DNA of 64,000 nucleotides from an uncultured delta proteobacterium (lineage in GTDB: Bacteria; Desulfobacterota; Binatia; JACPRU01): assembly GCA_963745025.1 (NCBI GenBank), contig CAVUWD010000008.1, positions 96,001-160,000 of the forward strand. The letters run 5' to 3'. Below are positions 5,481 through 62,010 of the stretch, piece after piece. The position numbers and the translations under genes were made by a program. The number at the start of each line of letters is the position of its first letter. Position 1 is the first letter of the stretch. The notes beneath the pieces were generated by a model that did no database searches, was not told where the DNA came from, and saw nothing but the letters and a program-made list of their open reading frames with translations.

Positions 5481-5607
5481 ATCGCGAGGACTTTGCGGTG
5501 AGCTGCGAGCTGTCGTGAAACAAAAAACACTCAGTAATTCCATATGCTAGCAGGGAACAACCAGTTCAGGATGTTTCAGGAGAAGTCGTAATTATCCTGG
5601 GATCACA

Positions 5608-5652
5608 GATTCGTAATCAGCAGGTCGCCGGTTCGATTCCGGCGGGTGGCTC
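5608..5652 (+). other. tRNA-Thr(CGT) 3' half, att core
   Basis: gattCGTaatcagcaggtcgccggttcgattccggcgggtggctc: anticodon loop, T-arm, acceptor 3' strand; no 5' half. Confidence 0.85.
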
Positions 5653-6040: not shown

Positions 6041-6153
6041 GGACGCACATCTGGAGGCGCTAGGCAGGAGGAGCGGCAAACGAGGACCGGTGATTGAGTA
6101 CAGATGCTCCTCACCCAACTGATGACAAGACGCTGTTTGCAGAGGTGATCGAG

Positions 6154-6843
6154 ATGGCGACGTTCGTTCTCGTCCACGGTGCGTTCGGCAGCCCCGCCGA
6201 GTTGGCGCCGGTGATTCCCTTGCTCGAGGCGCTCGGTCACCGTGCCATCGCCGTCGACCTGCCGTGCGCGGACCCGGCGGCGACACTTGACGACTACGCC
6301 CGGACGGTGGTCGAGGCGATGGCCGGGATCGAAGGGCCGGTCGTGGTCGTCGGCCATTCGGCGGGCGGCGCGACGATCTCGCTCGTGCCCGGCCGGACCC
6401 GCGTCGACCGCCTGGTCTACGTGACGGCGGTCGTTCCCGAGCCGGGGCGCTCGATCGCAGACGTCGTTGGCGCCGACGTTCGCGAGACGATGCTGTCGGT
6501 CTCACATGACGACGGCAACGGCTGCCGGTCGTTTGACCTGGAGATGCTGGCCTCGCTCGCGCCACCGGAGGAGCGGGAGGCGTATCTTGCCTTCCTCAGA
6601 GCCACGCAGCGCCCCCAGGGCTGGGCAGCGTTGGAACAGCCCTGGCCCGGCCGGTCACTTCCCGACGTGCCCCGCACCTACGTGCTCTGCACGGAGGACA
6701 AGATTATACCGCCCGCGAAACAGCGCGAGATGGCGGCGCGCCTGGGCGTGGAGCCCATCGAGATCGCCTCCGAACATGCGGTCTTCGCCCTCCAGCCCCG
6801 CGAGCTCGCCGCGGTGTTAGCGGCGCAGGGCCGATCCACGTGA
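6154..6843 (+). CDS. Alpha/beta fold hydrolase
   Basis: FVLVHG, GHSAGG nucleophile, TEDKII, SEH. Confidence 0.9.
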   Translation: MATFVLVHGAFGSPAELAPVIPLLEALGHRAIAVDLPCADPAATLDDYARTVVEAMAGIEGPVVVVGHSAGGATISLVPGRTRVDRLVYVTAVVPEPGRSIADVVGADVRETMLSVSHDDGNGCRSFDLEMLASLAPPEEREAYLAFLRATQRPQGWAALEQPWPGRSLPDVPRTYVLCTEDKIIPPAKQREMAARLGVEPIEIASEHAVFALQPRELAAVLAAQGRST

Positions 6844-6885: not shown

Positions 6886-6946
6886 GCCCAACCCGGCGAT
6901 GCAGCGGACCGGTTTCGCCGGCCGCTGATCACCTAGGCCGTTAGAT
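6886..6946 (+). other. Integron attC site (61 bp)
   Basis: R'' GCCCAAC, R' GTTAGAT; stem gat(g)cagcgg(a)ccgg/ccggccgctgatc with two extrahelical bases. Confidence 0.88.
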
Positions 6947-7181
6947 GGCGCAAAGAAGAAGACTGATCGCCACGCTGCGATGGATTGTTGAACGGCTCGT
7001 AACGCTCGCCATCGCCGTTCCAATTCAGCTCGGCGCGTTGCTGGTCTGGGCGATTGTCGTGGGCAGGCTCCAAGACGCGGTGGCCGGTGTCCTCGGTCAT
7101 CCCGTTCTCGATCCTGACGACGAGTTCACAACGAGGGTCACTTTGCGAGCGGCGCCATCTCCTAAGAAACAACGACAGTAG
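6945..7181 (+). CDS. Small membrane protein gene cassette; 3' end altered by IS110 insertion
   Basis: Starts in R' (gttagATG); gttagatggcgc complements reconstructed gcgccatctaac. Confidence 0.6.
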   Translation: MAQRRRLIATLRWIVERLVTLAIAVPIQLGALLVWAIVVGRLQDAVAGVLGHPVLDPDDEFTTRVTLRAAPSPKKQRQ

Positions 7182-8483
7182 GGGTTTGTAATTGCACGAG
7201 TTGGAAGCCGAGAGAGGCGGCGCGCTTGGAGAGAGAGCGGACGGTGCGCTCGCGGAATTTGAGTTCGTAGTAATCGATGCCGAGATCTTTGTAGGGTTGG
7301 CGGTGCTTCCACATTCGGTAGAAGATGCGCGAGAGCTTGTGGGCGGTGGCGGTGATGGCCTTGGGGGGCCCGAGTCGGGCGCGCATGCGGCGATGAAAGG
7401 CACCCAGAGCGGTGTGGCTGTTGCCGGCAGACTGAGCGGCTCGGCGTAAGGCAGTGGCCACACGGTTGGAGGCTTTTCGGGTCTTGGAGCTTTTCACTTC
7501 TCCTCCGGTGACACGGTTGTCGGGGCACAGCGCAAGCCAGGAGGCGAAGTGCTTCTCGGAGGGAAACTTCGAGGGATCGAGGCCGACCTCGGAAAGGATG
7601 GTCTGCACGGTGAGGGCATCGAACCCCGTGATGGCGGTGAAGTCGACGCCTGAGATTCGATAGAGGTGGGTGCGCAGGTCGAAGCCAGCCTCGTTGCGCT
7701 GGGGCTTGCGGTGGGTGGCCTTGGGTTGTCCCAGGGGCGTGAGAGCAGGGTCGACTTGGGTGTCGAAGCCGCCCAGGCATTGCTCGATCCGCAGGTCGCA
7801 GTCGGCAATCATGCTGCGGTAGGTGTCATAGAGCGAGAGGCATTGCTCAAGTGCGAAGAGGTGCTCGGGTCGGTAGTCGCCCTGGAGGGATTGGGCGATG
7901 CGCTCGGAGGTGCTCTTGATGCGATGATCGCGCATCGCGGCCAGAAGCTGTGGATCTCGCTCACCGGCGAGGATGGAGCGAATGATTCTCATGCCGCTGA
8001 CGCCGGTGATGTCACTGATGACCTTGTGAAGCTGGATGTTCATCTGGGTCAGGGCCTTCTGCATGCGCTGCACGTGAGCGGCCGCGTCGCGGATGAGAGT
8101 ATCGCGCTGGCGGATGTAGCTGCGCAGCACGCAGGTCTGATCGTCGGGACGAAACGATCCCGAGAGTAGACCAAAGGTGTGCAGCTGCTGGAGCCACTGG
8201 CAGTCCTGGATGTCGCTCTTTCTGCCGGGCAGGTTTTTGACGTGGCGGGCGTTGACGAGCTTGACCTCTCCTAAACGGGATAACCCTCCGTGCGAGGGAG
8301 GGCTTCACCAATGAAACAACCGCAAGCCCCCCGGAACCATGCTAACCCACGGGCGCGAAGGCACCATTGGCGCTACGGTCTTAGCTACCCGAGCACATCC
8401 CGGTGTACTCGACGCACACCGGCGCAGCAAAGACACTCAGGTTTCTTCCATCAACAACACCGCGCCTCGCGCGGGGTCAAATG
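7161..8483 (-). mobile_element. IS110-family element copy 1, with 366-bp internal deletion
   Basis: Near-identical to 60014-61702; flanked by CT at 7159-7160 and 8484-8485; lacks transposase N-terminus. Confidence 0.93.
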
Positions 8484-8531
8484 CTAACAAGGCGCACAAC
8501 CTGCTCGCTGCGCGCTCCGCTCCGTTTCGCT

Positions 8532-8567
8532 TGCGGGCTCCGCGCGAGGGCGGCCTCGCGCGGAGCC
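8532..8567. repeat. GC-rich hairpin (REP/terminator-like)
   Basis: ggctccgcgcgagg gcgg cctcgcgcggagcc. Confidence 0.55.
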
Positions 8568-8671
8568 GTCTGCCGGCCCATGAGCGGTGAGCCGGATGCT
8601 GCAAGGCCGAGCGATAGCCGCCCCGAGCGAGGTCGCAAGCGCCGTCGGCGCGCGCAGCCGAGCGTAGTCAA

Positions 8672-58348: not shown

Positions 58349-58532
58349 ATGTACGAGCGAATCCTCCGGCGGATGCGCCAGAAGGTCCGCGCCGCCCTGG
58401 ACTACGTGGTAACGACGCACGCGGAAGAAGAGATGAAACGACGACGATCTCACCATTCTCGATATCGAGCACGCGATCTTGAGTGGTAAGATTCTTGAGC
58501 GGCAACGCGATGCCGAGATCCCGGGTCGTTGA
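58349..58532 (+). pseudogene. DUF4258-like protein, frameshifted and truncated
   Basis: YVVTTHAEEEM / DDDLTILDIEHAILSG-I-ERQRD. Confidence 0.65.
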
Positions 58533-58710
58533 TATGGCGGGTCCTGTCAATTGCTGGCAGTAATCCCGCCTCACGGATCCGTGAGTTTCTATGGTCGTCG
58601 AGACGCGCTTTTCGGCGGCGCCGTGTTCTAGCGACGATTGATCCTGCTGCCATGGACCTGCCTCCTTGCATTGTGGCTCTGTGCTCGAGAGCCGGTTCAC
58701 ACAACCGCGA

Positions 58711-58804: not shown

Positions 58805-60034
58805 GTGCACCACGAAACCACACTGATCGCCACCATCGCTGTTAGTCTAGCCTTTGCCCTCGCCGGAGGCTTCATCGCTATCCGGCTGCGCCTGCCGTCT
58901 CTCGTCGGCTACTTACTGGCTGGCGTTGCTGTTGGGCCGTTCACTCCAGGGTTTGTCGCCGACGCGAAGCTTGCGCCACAACTGGCTGAGATCGGGGTCG
59001 TACTACTCATGTTTGGTGTCGGGATGCACATCTCGGTGCGCGACCTTTTGGCGGTTCGCGCGATAGCGGTGCCCGGTGCGGTTGTTCAGATCGCGGCAGC
59101 GACGGCGCTTGGTGTCGGTGTCGCTTTGCTGTGGGGCTGGTCGTTGGGCGCCGGTCTTGTCTTTGGGCTGTCCCTCTCGGTGGCCAGCACGGTCGTGCTC
59201 CTCCGTGCGCTCGGGGCATGGGGCATCCTGGACTCGAGCAATGGCCGCGTGGCGGTCGGCTGGCTCGTCGTCGAAGACCTCGTGATGGTTCTTACACTCG
59301 TGTTGCTCCCAGCGTTAGCAGGGTCGCTTGGCGGACAGCCGTCCAGCCACGCCAACGTTGGCACCGCATCACAGAATCTGTTGGCTATAGTAGCTCTGAC
59401 CTTTGGCAAGGTGGCGGCGTTTATCGTCCTGATGCTGCTGGTTGGCACGCGCGTCTTTCCGTGGTTGCTCGAGCGGATCGAGGAGACTGGGTCGCGAGAG
59501 CTGTTCACACTCGCCGTGGTTGCTCTCGCTTTGGGCGTCGCCTTCGGCTCGGCGGAGCTCTTCGGGGTATCGTTTGCTCTCGGAGCTTTCTTTGCCGGCG
59601 TGGTTATCAACGAGTCTGATTTGAGCCACCGCGCGGCAACCGATTTGCGGCCTTTGGAGGACGCCTTCGCCGTCCTCTTCTTCGTGGCGGTCGGTATGCT
59701 CTTCGACCCAAGCATCCTGCTGCGTCAGCCCCTTCAAGTTGTTACGGTCGTCGCAATCATTGTTCTCGGCAAGTCAGTAGCCGCTGGGGCCATCGTGTTG
59801 GCGTTCCGGTACCCTCTCGATGCGGCGCTGACGGTTTCCGCGGCGCTGGCGCAGATCGGCGAGTTCTCTTTTATCCTCGCTGCGCTGGGCGTCAGCCTCG
59901 GGCTCCTGCCAGCGGAGGCGCACAACCTGATCGTGGCGGGTGCGCTCGTCTCGATCACCGTTAATCCGCTTCTCTTTTCCGCAATCGCCAACGTGTACCC
60001 CGGGAAGCGGCCTCCTAAGAAACAACGACAGTAG
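58805..60034 (+). CDS. CPA2 cation:proton antiporter (YbaL/KefC-like membrane domain)
   Basis: GPFTPG, AEIGVVLLMFGVG, LSVASTVV, AQIGEFSFIL; last codons derive from the IS. Confidence 0.92.
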   Translation: MHHETTLIATIAVSLAFALAGGFIAIRLRLPSLVGYLLAGVAVGPFTPGFVADAKLAPQLAEIGVVLLMFGVGMHISVRDLLAVRAIAVPGAVVQIAAATALGVGVALLWGWSLGAGLVFGLSLSVASTVVLLRALGAWGILDSSNGRVAVGWLVVEDLVMVLTLVLLPALAGSLGGQPSSHANVGTASQNLLAIVALTFGKVAAFIVLMLLVGTRVFPWLLERIEETGSRELFTLAVVALALGVAFGSAELFGVSFALGAFFAGVVINESDLSHRAATDLRPLEDAFAVLFFVAVGMLFDPSILLRQPLQVVTVVAIIVLGKSVAAGAIVLAFRYPLDAALTVSAALAQIGEFSFILAALGVSLGLLPAEAHNLIVAGALVSITVNPLLFSAIANVYPGKRPPKKQRQ

Positions 60035-60038
60035 GGGT

Positions 60039-61436
60039 TTATAATTGCACGAGTTGGAAGCCGAGAGAGGCGGCGCGCTTGGAGAGAGAGCGGACGGTGC
60101 GCTCGCGGAATTTGAGTTCGTAGTAATCGATGCCGAGATCTTTGTAGGGTTGGCGGTGCTTCCACATTCGGTAGAAGATGCGCGAGAGCTTGTGGGCGGT
60201 GGCGGTGATGGCCTTGGGGGGCCCGAGTCGGGCGCGCATGCGGCGATGAAAGGCACCCAGAGCGGTGTGGCTGTTGCCGGCAGACTGAGCGGCTCGGCGT
60301 AAGGCAGTGGCCACACGGTTGGAGGCTTTTCGGGTCTTGGAGCTTTTCACTTCTCCTCCGGTGACACGGTTGTCGGGGCACAGCGCAAGCCAGGAGGCGA
60401 AGTGCTTCTCGGAGGGAAACTTCGAGGGATCGAGGCCGACCTCGGAAAGGATGGTCTGCACGGTGAGGGCATCGAACCCCGTGATGGCGGTGAAGTCGAC
60501 GCCTGAGATTCGATAGAGGTGGGTGCGCAGGTCGAAGCCAGCCTCGTTGCGCTGGGGCTTGCGGTGGGTGGCCTTGGGTTGTCCCAGGGGCGTGAGAGCA
60601 GGGTCGACTTGGGTGTCGAAGCCGCCCAGGCATTGCTCGATCCGCAGGTCGCAGTCGGCAATCATGCTGCGGTAGGTGTCATAGAGCGAGAGGCATTGCT
60701 CAAGTGCGAAGAGGTGCTCGGGTCGGTAGTCGCCCTGGAGGGATTGGGCGATGCGCTCGGAGGTGCTCTTGATGCGATGATCGCGCATCGCGGCCAGAAG
60801 CTGTGGATCTCGCTCACCGGCGAGGATGGAGCGAATGATTCTCATGCCGCTGACGCCGGTGATGTCACTGATGACCTTGTGAAGCTGGATGTTCATCTGG
60901 GTCAGGGCCTTCTGCATGCGCTGCACGTGAGCGGCCGCGTCGCGGATGAGAGTATCGCGCTGGCGGATGTAGCTGCGCAGCACGCAGGTCTGATCGTCGG
61001 GACGAAACGATCCCGAGAGTAGACCAAAGGTGTGCAGCTGCTGGAGCCACTGGCAGTCCTGGATGTCGCTCTTTCTGCCGGGCAGGTTTTTGACGTGGCG
61101 GGCGTTGACGAGCTTGACCTCGAAGCCGCGCGTCTCGAGGATCTGAAAGAGCGGGATCCAGTAGACTCCGGTGGATTCCATGACCACGGTGTCGACTCCG
61201 CACTGCTCGAGCCAGTCAGCCAGACGGTGCAAATCGGCGGTGAAGCACTCGAAGCGGCGCACGGGCTGCGGATCGCGGTCCTCGGGAACCGCCACGTAGT
61301 GCTCGGCGGATCCGACATCGATGCCGGCGGCGTTGAGGTGCACAGCCTTGAGGCTCGCGGGCAACCCCGTTCCTCGCGCGACGCTCTTTCTCTTTCGGCC
61401 TGCGCCGGGTTTGATAGACTCCTTCATCGAGTACAC
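60039..61436 (-). CDS. IS110 DEDD recombinase/transposase
   Basis: AGIDVGS, MESTGVYW, KSDIQD, FASWLALCP. Confidence 0.95.
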   Translation of the reverse strand: MYSMKESIKPGAGRKRKSVARGTGLPASLKAVHLNAAGIDVGSAEHYVAVPEDRDPQPVRRFECFTADLHRLADWLEQCGVDTVVMESTGVYWIPLFQILETRGFEVKLVNARHVKNLPGRKSDIQDCQWLQQLHTFGLLSGSFRPDDQTCVLRSYIRQRDTLIRDAAAHVQRMQKALTQMNIQLHKVISDITGVSGMRIIRSILAGERDPQLLAAMRDHRIKSTSERIAQSLQGDYRPEHLFALEQCLSLYDTYRSMIADCDLRIEQCLGGFDTQVDPALTPLGQPKATHRKPQRNEAGFDLRTHLYRISGVDFTAITGFDALTVQTILSEVGLDPSKFPSEKHFASWLALCPDNRVTGGEVKSSKTRKASNRVATALRRAAQSAGNSHTALGAFHRRMRARLGPPKAITATAHKLSRIFYRMWKHRQPYKDLGIDYYELKFRERTVRSLSKRAASLGFQLVQL

Positions 61437-61660
61437 CTCCTTGGAGTTGGGATGTGCTCGGGCCGGGTGGGTCGAAGGTGAGAAATCTCCTAAACGGGAT
61501 AACCCTCCGTGCGAGGGAGGGCTTCACCAATGAAACAACCGCAAGCCCCCCGGAACCATGCTAACCCACGGGCGCGAAGGCACCATTGGCGCTACGGTCT
61601 TAGCTACCCGAGCACATCCCGGTGTACTCGACGCACACCGGCGCAGCAAAGACACTCAGG
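61437..61660 (-). ncRNA. Predicted bridge/seek RNA
   Basis: 14-bp closing stem 61449-61462/61607-61620; motifs matching target and donor; boundaries approximate. Confidence 0.7.
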
Positions 61661-61702
61661 TTTCTTCCATCAACAACACCGCGCCTCGCGCGGGGTCAAA
61701 TG

Positions 61703-61795
61703 CTAACACGGCGTTGGAACGGCCCCGCGCATGAACGGCGAGTCATCAAGGCGAGCCGCGGTGGGCGCGAGCCGCTCAACCTTCGGTCGTTGATA
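61703..61795 (+). other. Integron attC site, split by IS110 in R''
   Basis: (gc)CTAAC...gttg(g)aacggc/gccgctcaac...GTTGATA. Confidence 0.8.
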
Positions 61796-62010
61796 TGGCT
61801 GACCCGACACACCCCTCTGGAGGTACCGTGGACGAGATCGAACTAGCCCAAGAACTTGCTACAGAGCTGGGTTGGAGTATCCAGGCCACCTATCCTGGGC
61901 TTCGAGCGGTCCACGCCCTCGGACGCGCCATCGACGCCGCACGCACGATCCACCTCCGCCCCGCCGGCCTGGTCGGCCGTCAGGGGCGGTTCACGCCTGC
62001 CTGACCGGGC

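Follow-up and report, generated by a model that had tools for sequence, protein, structure and literature searches.

The 64,000-nucleotide stretch analysed here (the window; positions 96,001 to 160,000 of contig CAVUWD010000008.1, from an uncultured bacterium of the class Binatia) holds two copies, A and B, of an insertion sequence (IS) of the IS110 group, which combines a DEDD transposase with a left end predicted to encode a bridge RNA. The element inserts at the short motif CT|AAC, and some of its copies interrupt the R'' boxes of integron attC sites. The host metagenome-assembled genome (MAG) measures 5.6 Mb at 66% G+C, comprises 20 contigs and is 92.65% complete, and a blastn search of it with the element recovered five full-length copies and one fragment. 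The transposase gene and the five full-length copies are located as follows.

60014..61704, minus strand: IS copy A, 1691 bp including one CT core, with ends common to the five copies and backed by guide/flank covariation.
60039..61427, minus strand: DEDD transposase gene, 462 amino acids (aa) in copy A (Pfam PF01548, 5.8e-22; PF02371, 5.4e-11).
7161..8485 (7159-8485 with both CT), minus strand: IS copy B, defective, delimited by blastn of A against B.
Contig C12, 72177-73869: IS copy C.
Contig C12, 115256-116952: IS copy D, ending 8 nt short of the contig end.
Contig C16, 890224-891916: IS copy E.

All five full-length copies are identical at their ends, CTCCTAAG...AAATGCTAAC on the plus strand, and their flanks diverge directly outside. 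A CT stands at both junctions of every copy (on the plus strand at 60012-13 and 61703-04 for copy A, whose body spans 60014-61702, and at 7159-60 and 8484-85 for copy B), and the AG core is found in all relatives. Pairwise identity among copies A, C and E is 99.9-100%. Copy B is identical to them except for an internal deletion of 366 bp, equivalent to ~61121-61486 of copy A, which removed the 3' part of the RNA, the ribosome site and ~102 codons. Copy D (98%) carries at least 6 indels in a transposase gene that reads as a pseudogene, beside an unchanged RNA region. An origin of the copy B deletion through action of the recombinase at the donor-guide DNA was considered and rejected: the junction keeps two AGs (TTTAGG-AG-AG-GTC) with 2-nt microhomology and does not correspond to a conservative single-core exchange. 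In addition, contig C20:1-260 begins within a sixth copy (the RNA region and the first ~33 codons) and then passes into unrelated DNA, and a loose end resembling this fragment also occurs in one public run.

Since every right flank starts with AAC, the copies alone cannot assign CTAAC to the element or to its target. We set the boundaries by comparing copies within single genomes in four multi-copy relatives: three copies from the Candidatus Binatia MAG, the eight of nine Wolbachia copies whose left end is intact, seven copies from a Dehalococcoidia MAG and two from an Acidobacteriota MAG. Read in the sense of the transposase, these elements have a left edge N-AG-CA... and a right edge ...LD-AG, and the bases preceding the left AG differ among the Wolbachia copies (GTT, GTA, ATT). 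From these edges it follows that the core is AG in transposase sense, that is CT on the plus strand of the window, and that AAC belongs to the target. Removal of the body and one CT restores gcggcCTAACacggcg at A and gccatCTAACaaggcg at B, both of which fit RYYYAAC. This reproduces the restored sites given by an earlier first-pass annotation of this DNA; its single-CT boundary is backed by the relatives, and its statement that the two copies have the same orientation was confirmed at both sites. Its description of the element as lacking inverted repeats has to be amended for one short pair of 7 bp, AAGAAAC at 60017-23 (the right-end arm) and GTTTCTT at 61660-66. This repeat is asymmetric, its arms being 4 nt (right) and 36 nt (left) away from the element ends, and its counterparts of 6-8 nt (left-end +30..+43 versus right-end -12..-5) covary, being maintained through changes in 21 of 22 distinct elements.

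The transposase gene is preceded by 275 nt of non-coding DNA (61428-61702) and followed by 25 nt in copy A and by ~1-3 nt in copies B-E. The open reading frame (ORF) of copies B-E, like that of the sister element from the Candidatus Binatia MAG, has as its stop the TAG contained in the terminal TTAGG. Only in copy A has position 60041 changed from G (kept in C and E) to A, giving an early TAA 8 codons ahead of that ancestral TAG. This layout agrees with the IS110-group architecture proposed in the first pass, with the non-coding region upstream and a stop codon near the element end.

Relatives with 44-78% protein identity were found at 80 loci in many phyla, the closest being the Candidatus Binatia MAG element (78%, three copies), with Wolbachia elements at 57%. 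A tblastn search of plasmids returned many full-length relatives, all annotated as IS110 family. In a maximum-likelihood tree of 24 sequences (quick search, LG+G4, IS621 and ISEc11 left out), the element falls in a 17-member clade (Shimodaira-Hasegawa-like approximate likelihood-ratio test, SH-aLRT, 99), which is sister to two actinobacterial IS110-type transposases (support 91). ISKpn4 and ISPa62 pair with one another (99) apart from this clade and group with ISSaen1 and ISShdy1 (99), and ISEc21 occupies a very long branch. The transposase therefore lies outside the IS1111-attC clade, as had been proposed, separated from ISKpn4 and ISPa62 by branches with support of 91-99, and assignment to the IS110 group rather than to IS1111-attC is supported. 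Judged by identity and tree position, the element is a close sister of the Candidatus Binatia one and part of a widespread clade that includes the Wolbachia and Citrobacter-plasmid elements. A member of this clade with ~50% identity (446 aa) is common on clinical Citrobacter, Klebsiella and Enterobacter plasmids; in the one case examined, on a Citrobacter freundii plasmid, the relative adjoins IS66 and is not part of an integron.

The left end contains the following RNA features.

61451..61618, minus strand: predicted bridge RNA core, 168 nt, minimum free energy -75.7 kcal/mol.
61558..61569, minus strand: left target guide with core and three bases, GTGGGTT-AG-CAT (RNA sense), in the scaffold CCCG-N6-AG-CAT-GG.
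61485..61498, minus strand: left donor guide with core, CCCG-TTTAGG-AG-AT, matching the right end ...TTAGG-AG.
61588..61593, minus strand: tentative right target guide AGCGCC, just 5' of CAATGGTG.

A 12-bp outer stem, GATGTGCTCGGG/CCCGAGCACATC, closes the predicted RNA core (61607-61618 with 61451-61462). RNAalifold applied to 18 relatives kept this outer stem together with a GACC/GGTT stem and a CCGG/CCGG stem, with 15 of 27 pairs compensatory, and no Rfam family matches the RNA region. The scaffold conserved in these 18 relatives reads ...GACC-G-N-[6 nt]-CAnTGGTG-hairpin-GCCCG-[6 nt]-AG-CAT-GGTT...CCGG...CATTGGTGA-hairpin-TCCCG-[6 nt]-AG-AT... The CAT after the first core equals the first three bases of the element, a type of segment that is reportedly called the 'handshake' in the 2024 work of Hiraizumi et al.

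Two guide segments can be read from this scaffold. Across 22 distinct elements, the five bases preceding the first AG match the 5 nt left of the element at a mean of 4.77 of 5 positions (1.62 when shuffled, with a maximum of 2.64 in 2000 shuffles) and the second guide matches the last 5 nt of the right end at 5.0 of 5 (2.75 when shuffled), figures that are partly circular and inflated because the boundary of single-copy relatives was placed by a guide copy with at most one mismatch. The 22 elements derive from 81 scanned sequences, 54 of which had the scaffold and an upstream guide copy; 39 loci with a right end present and a plausible length were kept. The four multi-copy families and the present element, for all of which the boundaries were found independently, agree with the guide assignments. 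CCCG-N6-AG is a compact, readable scaffold for both target and donor guides, and its natural reprogramming is seen in more than 20 elements. In the present element the left target guide reads CT-AACCC on the plus strand.

The evidence for a right target guide is more uneven. A 6-mer at the equivalent position is complementary to the right flank in Wolbachia, in Acidobacteriota (5 loci) and in a few others; the Wolbachia 6-mer AUCUUC is complementary to core-G plus AAGAT, with 3-5 of the 5 bases present in 7 of the 9 copies. The assignment fails in many relatives and requires two registers. At the present element's own insertions, AGCGCC fits site A only (6/8, in one register), with at most 3/7 at sites B-E. 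Joined to the left guide, it would yield AGCGC-CT-AACCC, within which the R'' consensus GCCTAAC can be read; against this ideal, 214 CT sites of the genome reach 10-12/14, compared with 5-9/14 for the sites actually used. Since the used sites rank low, we keep the right guide as tentative. No right donor guide with a consistent antisense match to the left end was found across the relatives. A dedicated attC guide is not supported, as the guide that can be read with confidence spans CT-AAC(CC) only.

With the body and one CT removed, the five insertion sites are restored as follows.

Site A, plus strand: GAAGCGGC-CT-AACACGG.
Site B, plus strand: GGCGCCAT-CT-AACAAGG.
Site C, plus strand: ACCCCAAC-CT-AACCTAA.
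Site D, plus strand: ATGGAACG-CT-AACCTGT.
Site E, plus strand: TTTGTCAA-CT-AACCCGA.

AAC is invariant at all five sites. CTAAC is rare in the genome, with 819 occurrences on both strands of the 5.6 Mb (80 for CTAACCC), so the presence of two copies at CTAAC reflects the target of the element and not chance.

The attC sites and the gene next to copy A are located in the window as follows.

61701..61798, plus strand: attC site A (80.1 bits, E 1.6e-18 with the covariance model R1, of which it is a training sequence, so that it scores by construction).
6886..6949, plus strand: short attC-like site ending in GTTAGAT (R1 26.2 bits, E 2.2e-4), resembling a site at 423123-423257 on contig C6.
58805..60034, plus strand: Na+/H+ exchanger gene (PF00999, 1.2e-50), its last ~10 codons replaced by IS sequence.

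A regular-expression scan gave 16 matches, among which four were recognised by eye as near-identical imperfect palindromes of 96 nt: site A, site C, a third lying 2.3 kb upstream of C and a fourth on contig C6. All four read TCTAAC-N4-GGTTGGAGCGG...CCGCTCAACC-N7-GTTAGC; they have R'', L'', L' and R' boxes, leave a single G unpaired in the first inner box (L'') and fold at -41 to -56 kcal/mol. We built R1 from these four sites, including A, and it scores sites A and C at 80-105 bits. Elsewhere in the same genome R1 identified three more sites at 37-44 bits (150 of ~10,000 first-look candidates were scored), one of which shares its strand with the C6 site and lies 0.6 kb from it; pairs of sites ~0.6 kb apart are present on both C12 and C6. 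In the window, searched with filters off, it found site A and the 6886-6949 site and nothing else below E 0.05. R1 is narrow, giving at most 11.5 bits to the class-1 attC sites of two plasmid integrons, and a search of Rfam returned no match to attC.

Of 151 genomes of the class, 37 carry an integron integrase above the curated cut-off, two of them belonging to the same family, and we searched eight stretches beside such integrases with R1. In a same-family genome (L115, contig C248) four R1 matches (82, 38, 29 and 21 bits) follow in a row just downstream of the integrase gene (470 bits) and on its strand, an arrangement known as 'inverted integrase'. A second stretch (L111) gave three matches, a third (L112) one weak match, and the remaining five none. 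We therefore regard A and C as genuine attC sites belonging to integrons of this lineage, in a genome where no integrase was found.

At site A, the R'' box is the CTAAC itself, its CT (61703-04) being the element core and its AAC (61705-07) the flank. The other boxes are GTTGGAACGGC (L''), GCCGCTCAAC (L') and GTTGATA (R', which departs from GTTRRRY), and the hairpin folds at -40.9 kcal/mol. The frame of the exchanger gene, once restored, continues into this attC. The closest DNA relatives of the exchanger gene (70-76%) come from other families of the class and none from the same genus. A 15-nt direct repeat, GGTCGTTGATATGGC, at 58524-58538 and 61785-61799 flanks the exchanger gene, the IS and attC A; its upstream copy has no attC before it, and the repeat may mark the edge of a cassette that entered a secondary site.

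At site B, the box that the element splits, ATCTAAC, exactly complements the GTTAGAT ending the 6886-6949 site 219 nt upstream (an 8-mer complement), and a small ORF starting at 6945 lies between GTTAGAT and copy B, so that the layout is that of a cassette. The DNA right of copy B has no GTTRRRY within 200 nt and no R1 match better than E 0.5. This side instead holds the 3' end of a convergent 356-aa ORF, whose TAG stop consists of the target T plus the core, and the remainder of this attC is missing or replaced. Thus, of the two different attC sites reported in the first pass, A stands as a strong one (80 bits), whereas B can be recognised as the R'' of a cassette by its complement but lacks an attC to its right. 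About 50 nt right of copy B, at 8530-8580, there is also a perfect 14-bp GC-rich hairpin (GGCTCCGCGCGAGG...CCTCGCGCGGAGCC), in the 3' portion of the convergent ORF, for which Pfam gave no match. Further upstream, just before an alpha/beta-hydrolase gene and the 6886-6949 site, positions 5560-5650 resemble the 3' half of a tRNA (T-arm and acceptor end) and may be the remnant of an old attachment site at the edge of acquired DNA; ARAGORN found no tRNA in the window.

At site C, an 82-aa ORF ends in GGTCTAAC, of which 14 bases, CAGAGCGGTCTAAC, exactly complement the 5' end of the cassette. The insertion point is 11 nt beyond these, within the second of three additional tandem pentamers (CCAAC-CTAAC-CTAAC), after which comes the normal AAGC-GGTTGG. 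Counted over the whole insertion, the IS is embedded in four tandem C(T/C)AAC pentamers (6150-6180 and 7866-7885 of its fetched stretch), and the other attC sites are without them. These pentamers, like the GTTGTT/AACAAC repeats around the sister element, may be traces of repeated insertion and excision, or they may belong to a separate repeat family. Site D lies near the end of a 423-aa ORF, with only 5 nt of right flank before the contig ends. Site E lies between a DUF2254 gene and a serine-dehydratase-like gene, which are divergent, and its CTAAC holds the TAA of a 70-codon frame. Neither D nor E is in recognisable attC DNA.

Searches beyond this genome added no further insertions. No copies of the IS were found among 60 other genomes of the class, which gave only two distant partial matches, and an exact 21-mer of the left end had two matches in metagenome contigs of the Joint Genome Institute (JGI), both to other elements with only the terminal hairpin in common. 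Homologues of the exchanger gene, at only 68-76% identity and with no attC downstream, were uninformative as a source of empty sites. Contigs assembled from four public runs end at the IS ends (60011/60014 and 61707), and one of them spans the left junction of site A; an empty-site or circle joint was found in none of these contigs. The public runs listed for this DNA included no RNA data set.

How far does the share of attC sites among the insertions exceed chance? If sites were chosen uniformly among the 819 CTAAC, at least two of five copies would fall in the 7-8 attC sites with a probability of 7e-4 to 9e-4. This null is naive, since most CTAAC are genic and insertions there would be lost. 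Were one in ten CTAAC or so tolerable (a value that is assumed, not computed), the probability would be ~0.02. The first pass would have had its attC-homing element refuted if most other insertions lay in non-attC CTAAC sites; beyond the two copies in the window, two insertions lie in non-attC CTAAC (D and E) versus one in an attC (C). For the proposal of attC homing speak the two or three of five sites in attC DNA (P ~1e-3 under the naive null); against it speak a guide that covers only CT-AAC(CC) and the two sites that are not attC-like. The attC share is therefore suggestive, and attC homing is not established.

On balance, we favour, with a probability of roughly 60%, an active or recently active IS110-group element that has a short CT|AAC target and often lands in the R'' box of attC. 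A bridge RNA expressed from the 275-nt left end would guide the DEDD recombinase. One loop strand of this RNA (GGGTT-AG-CAT) matches the left side of the target and the 2-nt core, and another (TTAGG-AG) the right end of the element itself. As in IS621 and ISEc21, movement would be through a circular form, with a predicted junction ...GTTTCTTAGG-AG-CATTTGACC... in transposase sense. The target that can be assigned with confidence would be short, CT|AAC or at best CT|AACCC, on the strand opposite the transposase. The R'' boxes of this organism's attC sites (GYCTAAC) contain the motif, and the element would frequently land there; each such insertion separates R'' from the rest of the site and should disable the attC. 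The remaining two copies would have used the same pentamer in ordinary DNA.

Several observations weigh against this reading. Only five insertion sites are known, and the genome offers 80 CTAACCC sites. The fit of the left guide to the real sites is imperfect (4, 3, 4, 4 and 5 of 5 at A-E), and the guide and flank figures of the single-copy relatives carry the circularity described above. The insertion at site C is in the R'' region and not at the R'' that pairs with the 5' end of the cassette. An attC-like site on contig C4 (8079-8171, 44 bits), whose R'' region, CCGCCTAACCC, is the best attC match to the guide or guides, is unoccupied. R1 detects nothing significant to the right of B, at D or at E, a weak negative given that the model is narrow and also misses class-1 attC. 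No integron integrase in this genome exceeds the TIGR02249 cut-off (17 matches, the best at 73.9 bits versus 265). The restored sites are reconstructions, as no empty site was recovered from relatives, other genomes of the class, JGI metagenome contigs or public-run contigs, and the MAG, in its 20 contigs, has 7.6% contamination.

A more specialised element is possible, though we would not bet on it: the bridge RNA, or the recombinase together with a folded attC, may recognise more than CTAAC, using a right guide that reads AGCG(G)C before the core or using the hairpin, in which case D and E would be off-target insertions. Such a specialist would explain why three of the five copies (A, B and C) sit in cassette R'' boxes when 819 CTAAC are available in the genome, and its orientation relative to the cassettes would be the same as that of ISKpn4 and ISPa62. 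The combined guide AGCGC-CT-AACCC, with GCCTAAC inside it and a 6/8 match at site A, also resembles the local attC R'' regions, which read GCGGTCTAAC, GCGGCCTAAC and CCGCCTAACCC, and the complementarity of the 6-mer to right flanks in Wolbachia (3-5 of 5 bases in 7 of 9 copies), Acidobacteriota and a few others points the same way. However, the right guide fits a minority of relatives, in two registers, and reaches at most 3/7 at B-E, and 214 CT sites outscore the used sites on the combined ideal. In addition, the best-matching attC, on contig C4, is empty, D and E are not attC-like, and the sister element, which has the same putative right guide, sits in GTTGTT/AACAAC repeats rather than in R1-type attC.

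The link to attC could also be indirect, if the element hits any CT|AAC and survives where it does no harm, or if it spread or arrived together with cassettes. We consider this unlikely. It is true that all five sites lie at or beyond gene ends or between genes: the insertion at A costs the exchanger gene its last ~10 codons, that at B leaves the convergent 356-aa ORF with its TAG, C lies 8 nt past a stop and E between divergent genes. Furthermore, on the assumption that about one tenth of CTAAC are harmless, two of five copies in attC would have P ~0.02, and an exchanger gene whose closest relatives are in other families fits acquired DNA. Yet four copies that are 99.9-100% identical argue for recent transposition within this genome and not for co-arrival, and three hits in so few R'' boxes exceed what a tolerance filter alone would give. 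Membership of the known IS1111-attC group, which has in common with the present element the association with attC and an orientation antisense to the cassettes, is so improbable that we treat it as ruled out by tblastn, insertion position and tree. The present element has its non-coding region upstream, a transposase of 462-470 rather than 347 aa and none of the 11-bp sub-terminal repeats of the GGACTCTCCCC type; similarity to that group is limited to the C-terminal part, the clade is separate and the insertion point is different.

At present, the element offers a well-resolved instance of a mechanism that was published in 2024. A bolder interpretation, which we put forward only tentatively, is that it represents a second, independent origin of attC homing among RNA-guided DEDD transposons, with a left-end RNA tuned to the core of R''. 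In that case the folded attC or a weak right guide may also be used, the cut would fall within R'' and not beside it, and the tandem C(T/C)AAC pentamers at C would be traces of repeated visits. If this were true, cassette arrays would be policed by at least two convergent lineages of RNA-guided IS with the same polarity relative to the cassettes. More generally, a real preference for attC would mean that attC targeting evolved more than once among bridge- and seek-RNA elements, and that the position of the RNA and the cut site differ from those of the IS1111-attC group. Insertion inside R'' should freeze the cassette, so that such elements would shape environmental cassette arrays.

Among known systems, mobile elements that home to attC include the group IIC-attC introns, which are retroelements and not recombinase-based IS. 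The founding papers on the IS1111-attC group are said to be those of Tetu & Holmes in 2008 and Post & Hall in 2009. In the full-text literature covered, no attC-targeting element of the IS110 group outside IS1111 was described, only the IS1111 group and the group IIC introns. The guide layout is the one that Durrant et al. 2024 describe for IS621, where the core forms part of both the left target guide and the left donor guide (PMC11208160). Like IS621 and the bridge-RNA IS110 group as presented there (PMC11208160), the present element has a recombinase with DEDD and Tnp domains, a long left end encoding a structured RNA, loop segments that repeat the left side of the target plus core and the left side of the donor plus core, a 2-nt core at both junctions and a short inverted repeat. 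Unlike IS621, it has its core as AG in transposase sense, and both of its flank-matching segments lie on the 3' strand of the loop after the CCCG motif. Its transposase also differs in size: in Siddiquee et al. 2024 (PMC11187229), transposases of 395-455 aa fall in the subgroup of IS110 itself and those of the IS621/IS492 branch have 315-330 aa, and the present one, at 462-470 aa, belongs with the size class of IS110 proper. The same paper places the non-coding region of the IS110 type upstream of the transposase gene. ISEc21, as described there (PMC11187229), resembles the present element in its upstream non-coding region and in short matches to both strands of the target, but has a transposase of 358 aa and targets the inside of IS3-family transposase genes.

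For the IS1111-attC group, which includes ISKpn4, ISPst6 and ISPa25, the same source reports attC specificity shown experimentally and a seekRNA downstream of tnp (PMC11187229); the attC specificity of the present element is putative. We joined ISPa62 to this comparison by its context. By the criteria of the group, IS1111 transposases have 330-350 aa and sub-terminal inverted repeats of 7-17 bp, and both ISKpn4 and ISPa62 (347 aa), which lie in class 1 integrons directly after the qacL and aadA1 cassettes, carry an 11-bp sub-terminal pair, GGACTCTCCCC/GGGGAGAGTCC, and a non-coding stretch of ~270 nt that follows tnp. In tblastn, similarity of the present transposase to these two was limited to the C-terminal domain (25-28%, E 0.05-0.09). 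In their integrons the R'' box (GTTAGA on the locus strand) is intact, 4-6 nt from the IS end, whereas the present element splits CT|AAC; its RNA, furthermore, is encoded upstream and its transposase is longer (462-470 aa), unlike the IS1111-attC arrangement with 347 aa and the RNA downstream.

Among its own relatives, the Candidatus Binatia sister (L019-L021, 78%) has the same scaffold, donor guide and putative right guide, and its target guide TTGTT-AG reads CT-AACAA, which also begins with CT-AAC. Unlike the present element, the three copies of the sister lie among GTTGTT/AACAAC palindromic repeats, with no R1 match at the insertion sites. In its setting, as an RNA-guided DEDD element that occupies the R'' end of attC sites, the present element agrees with the IS1111-attC group. 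Its polarity also agrees with that of ISKpn4 and ISPa62: the transposase is encoded antisense to the cassette genes, with the left end turned towards the L''/R' side and the right end towards the cassette gene.

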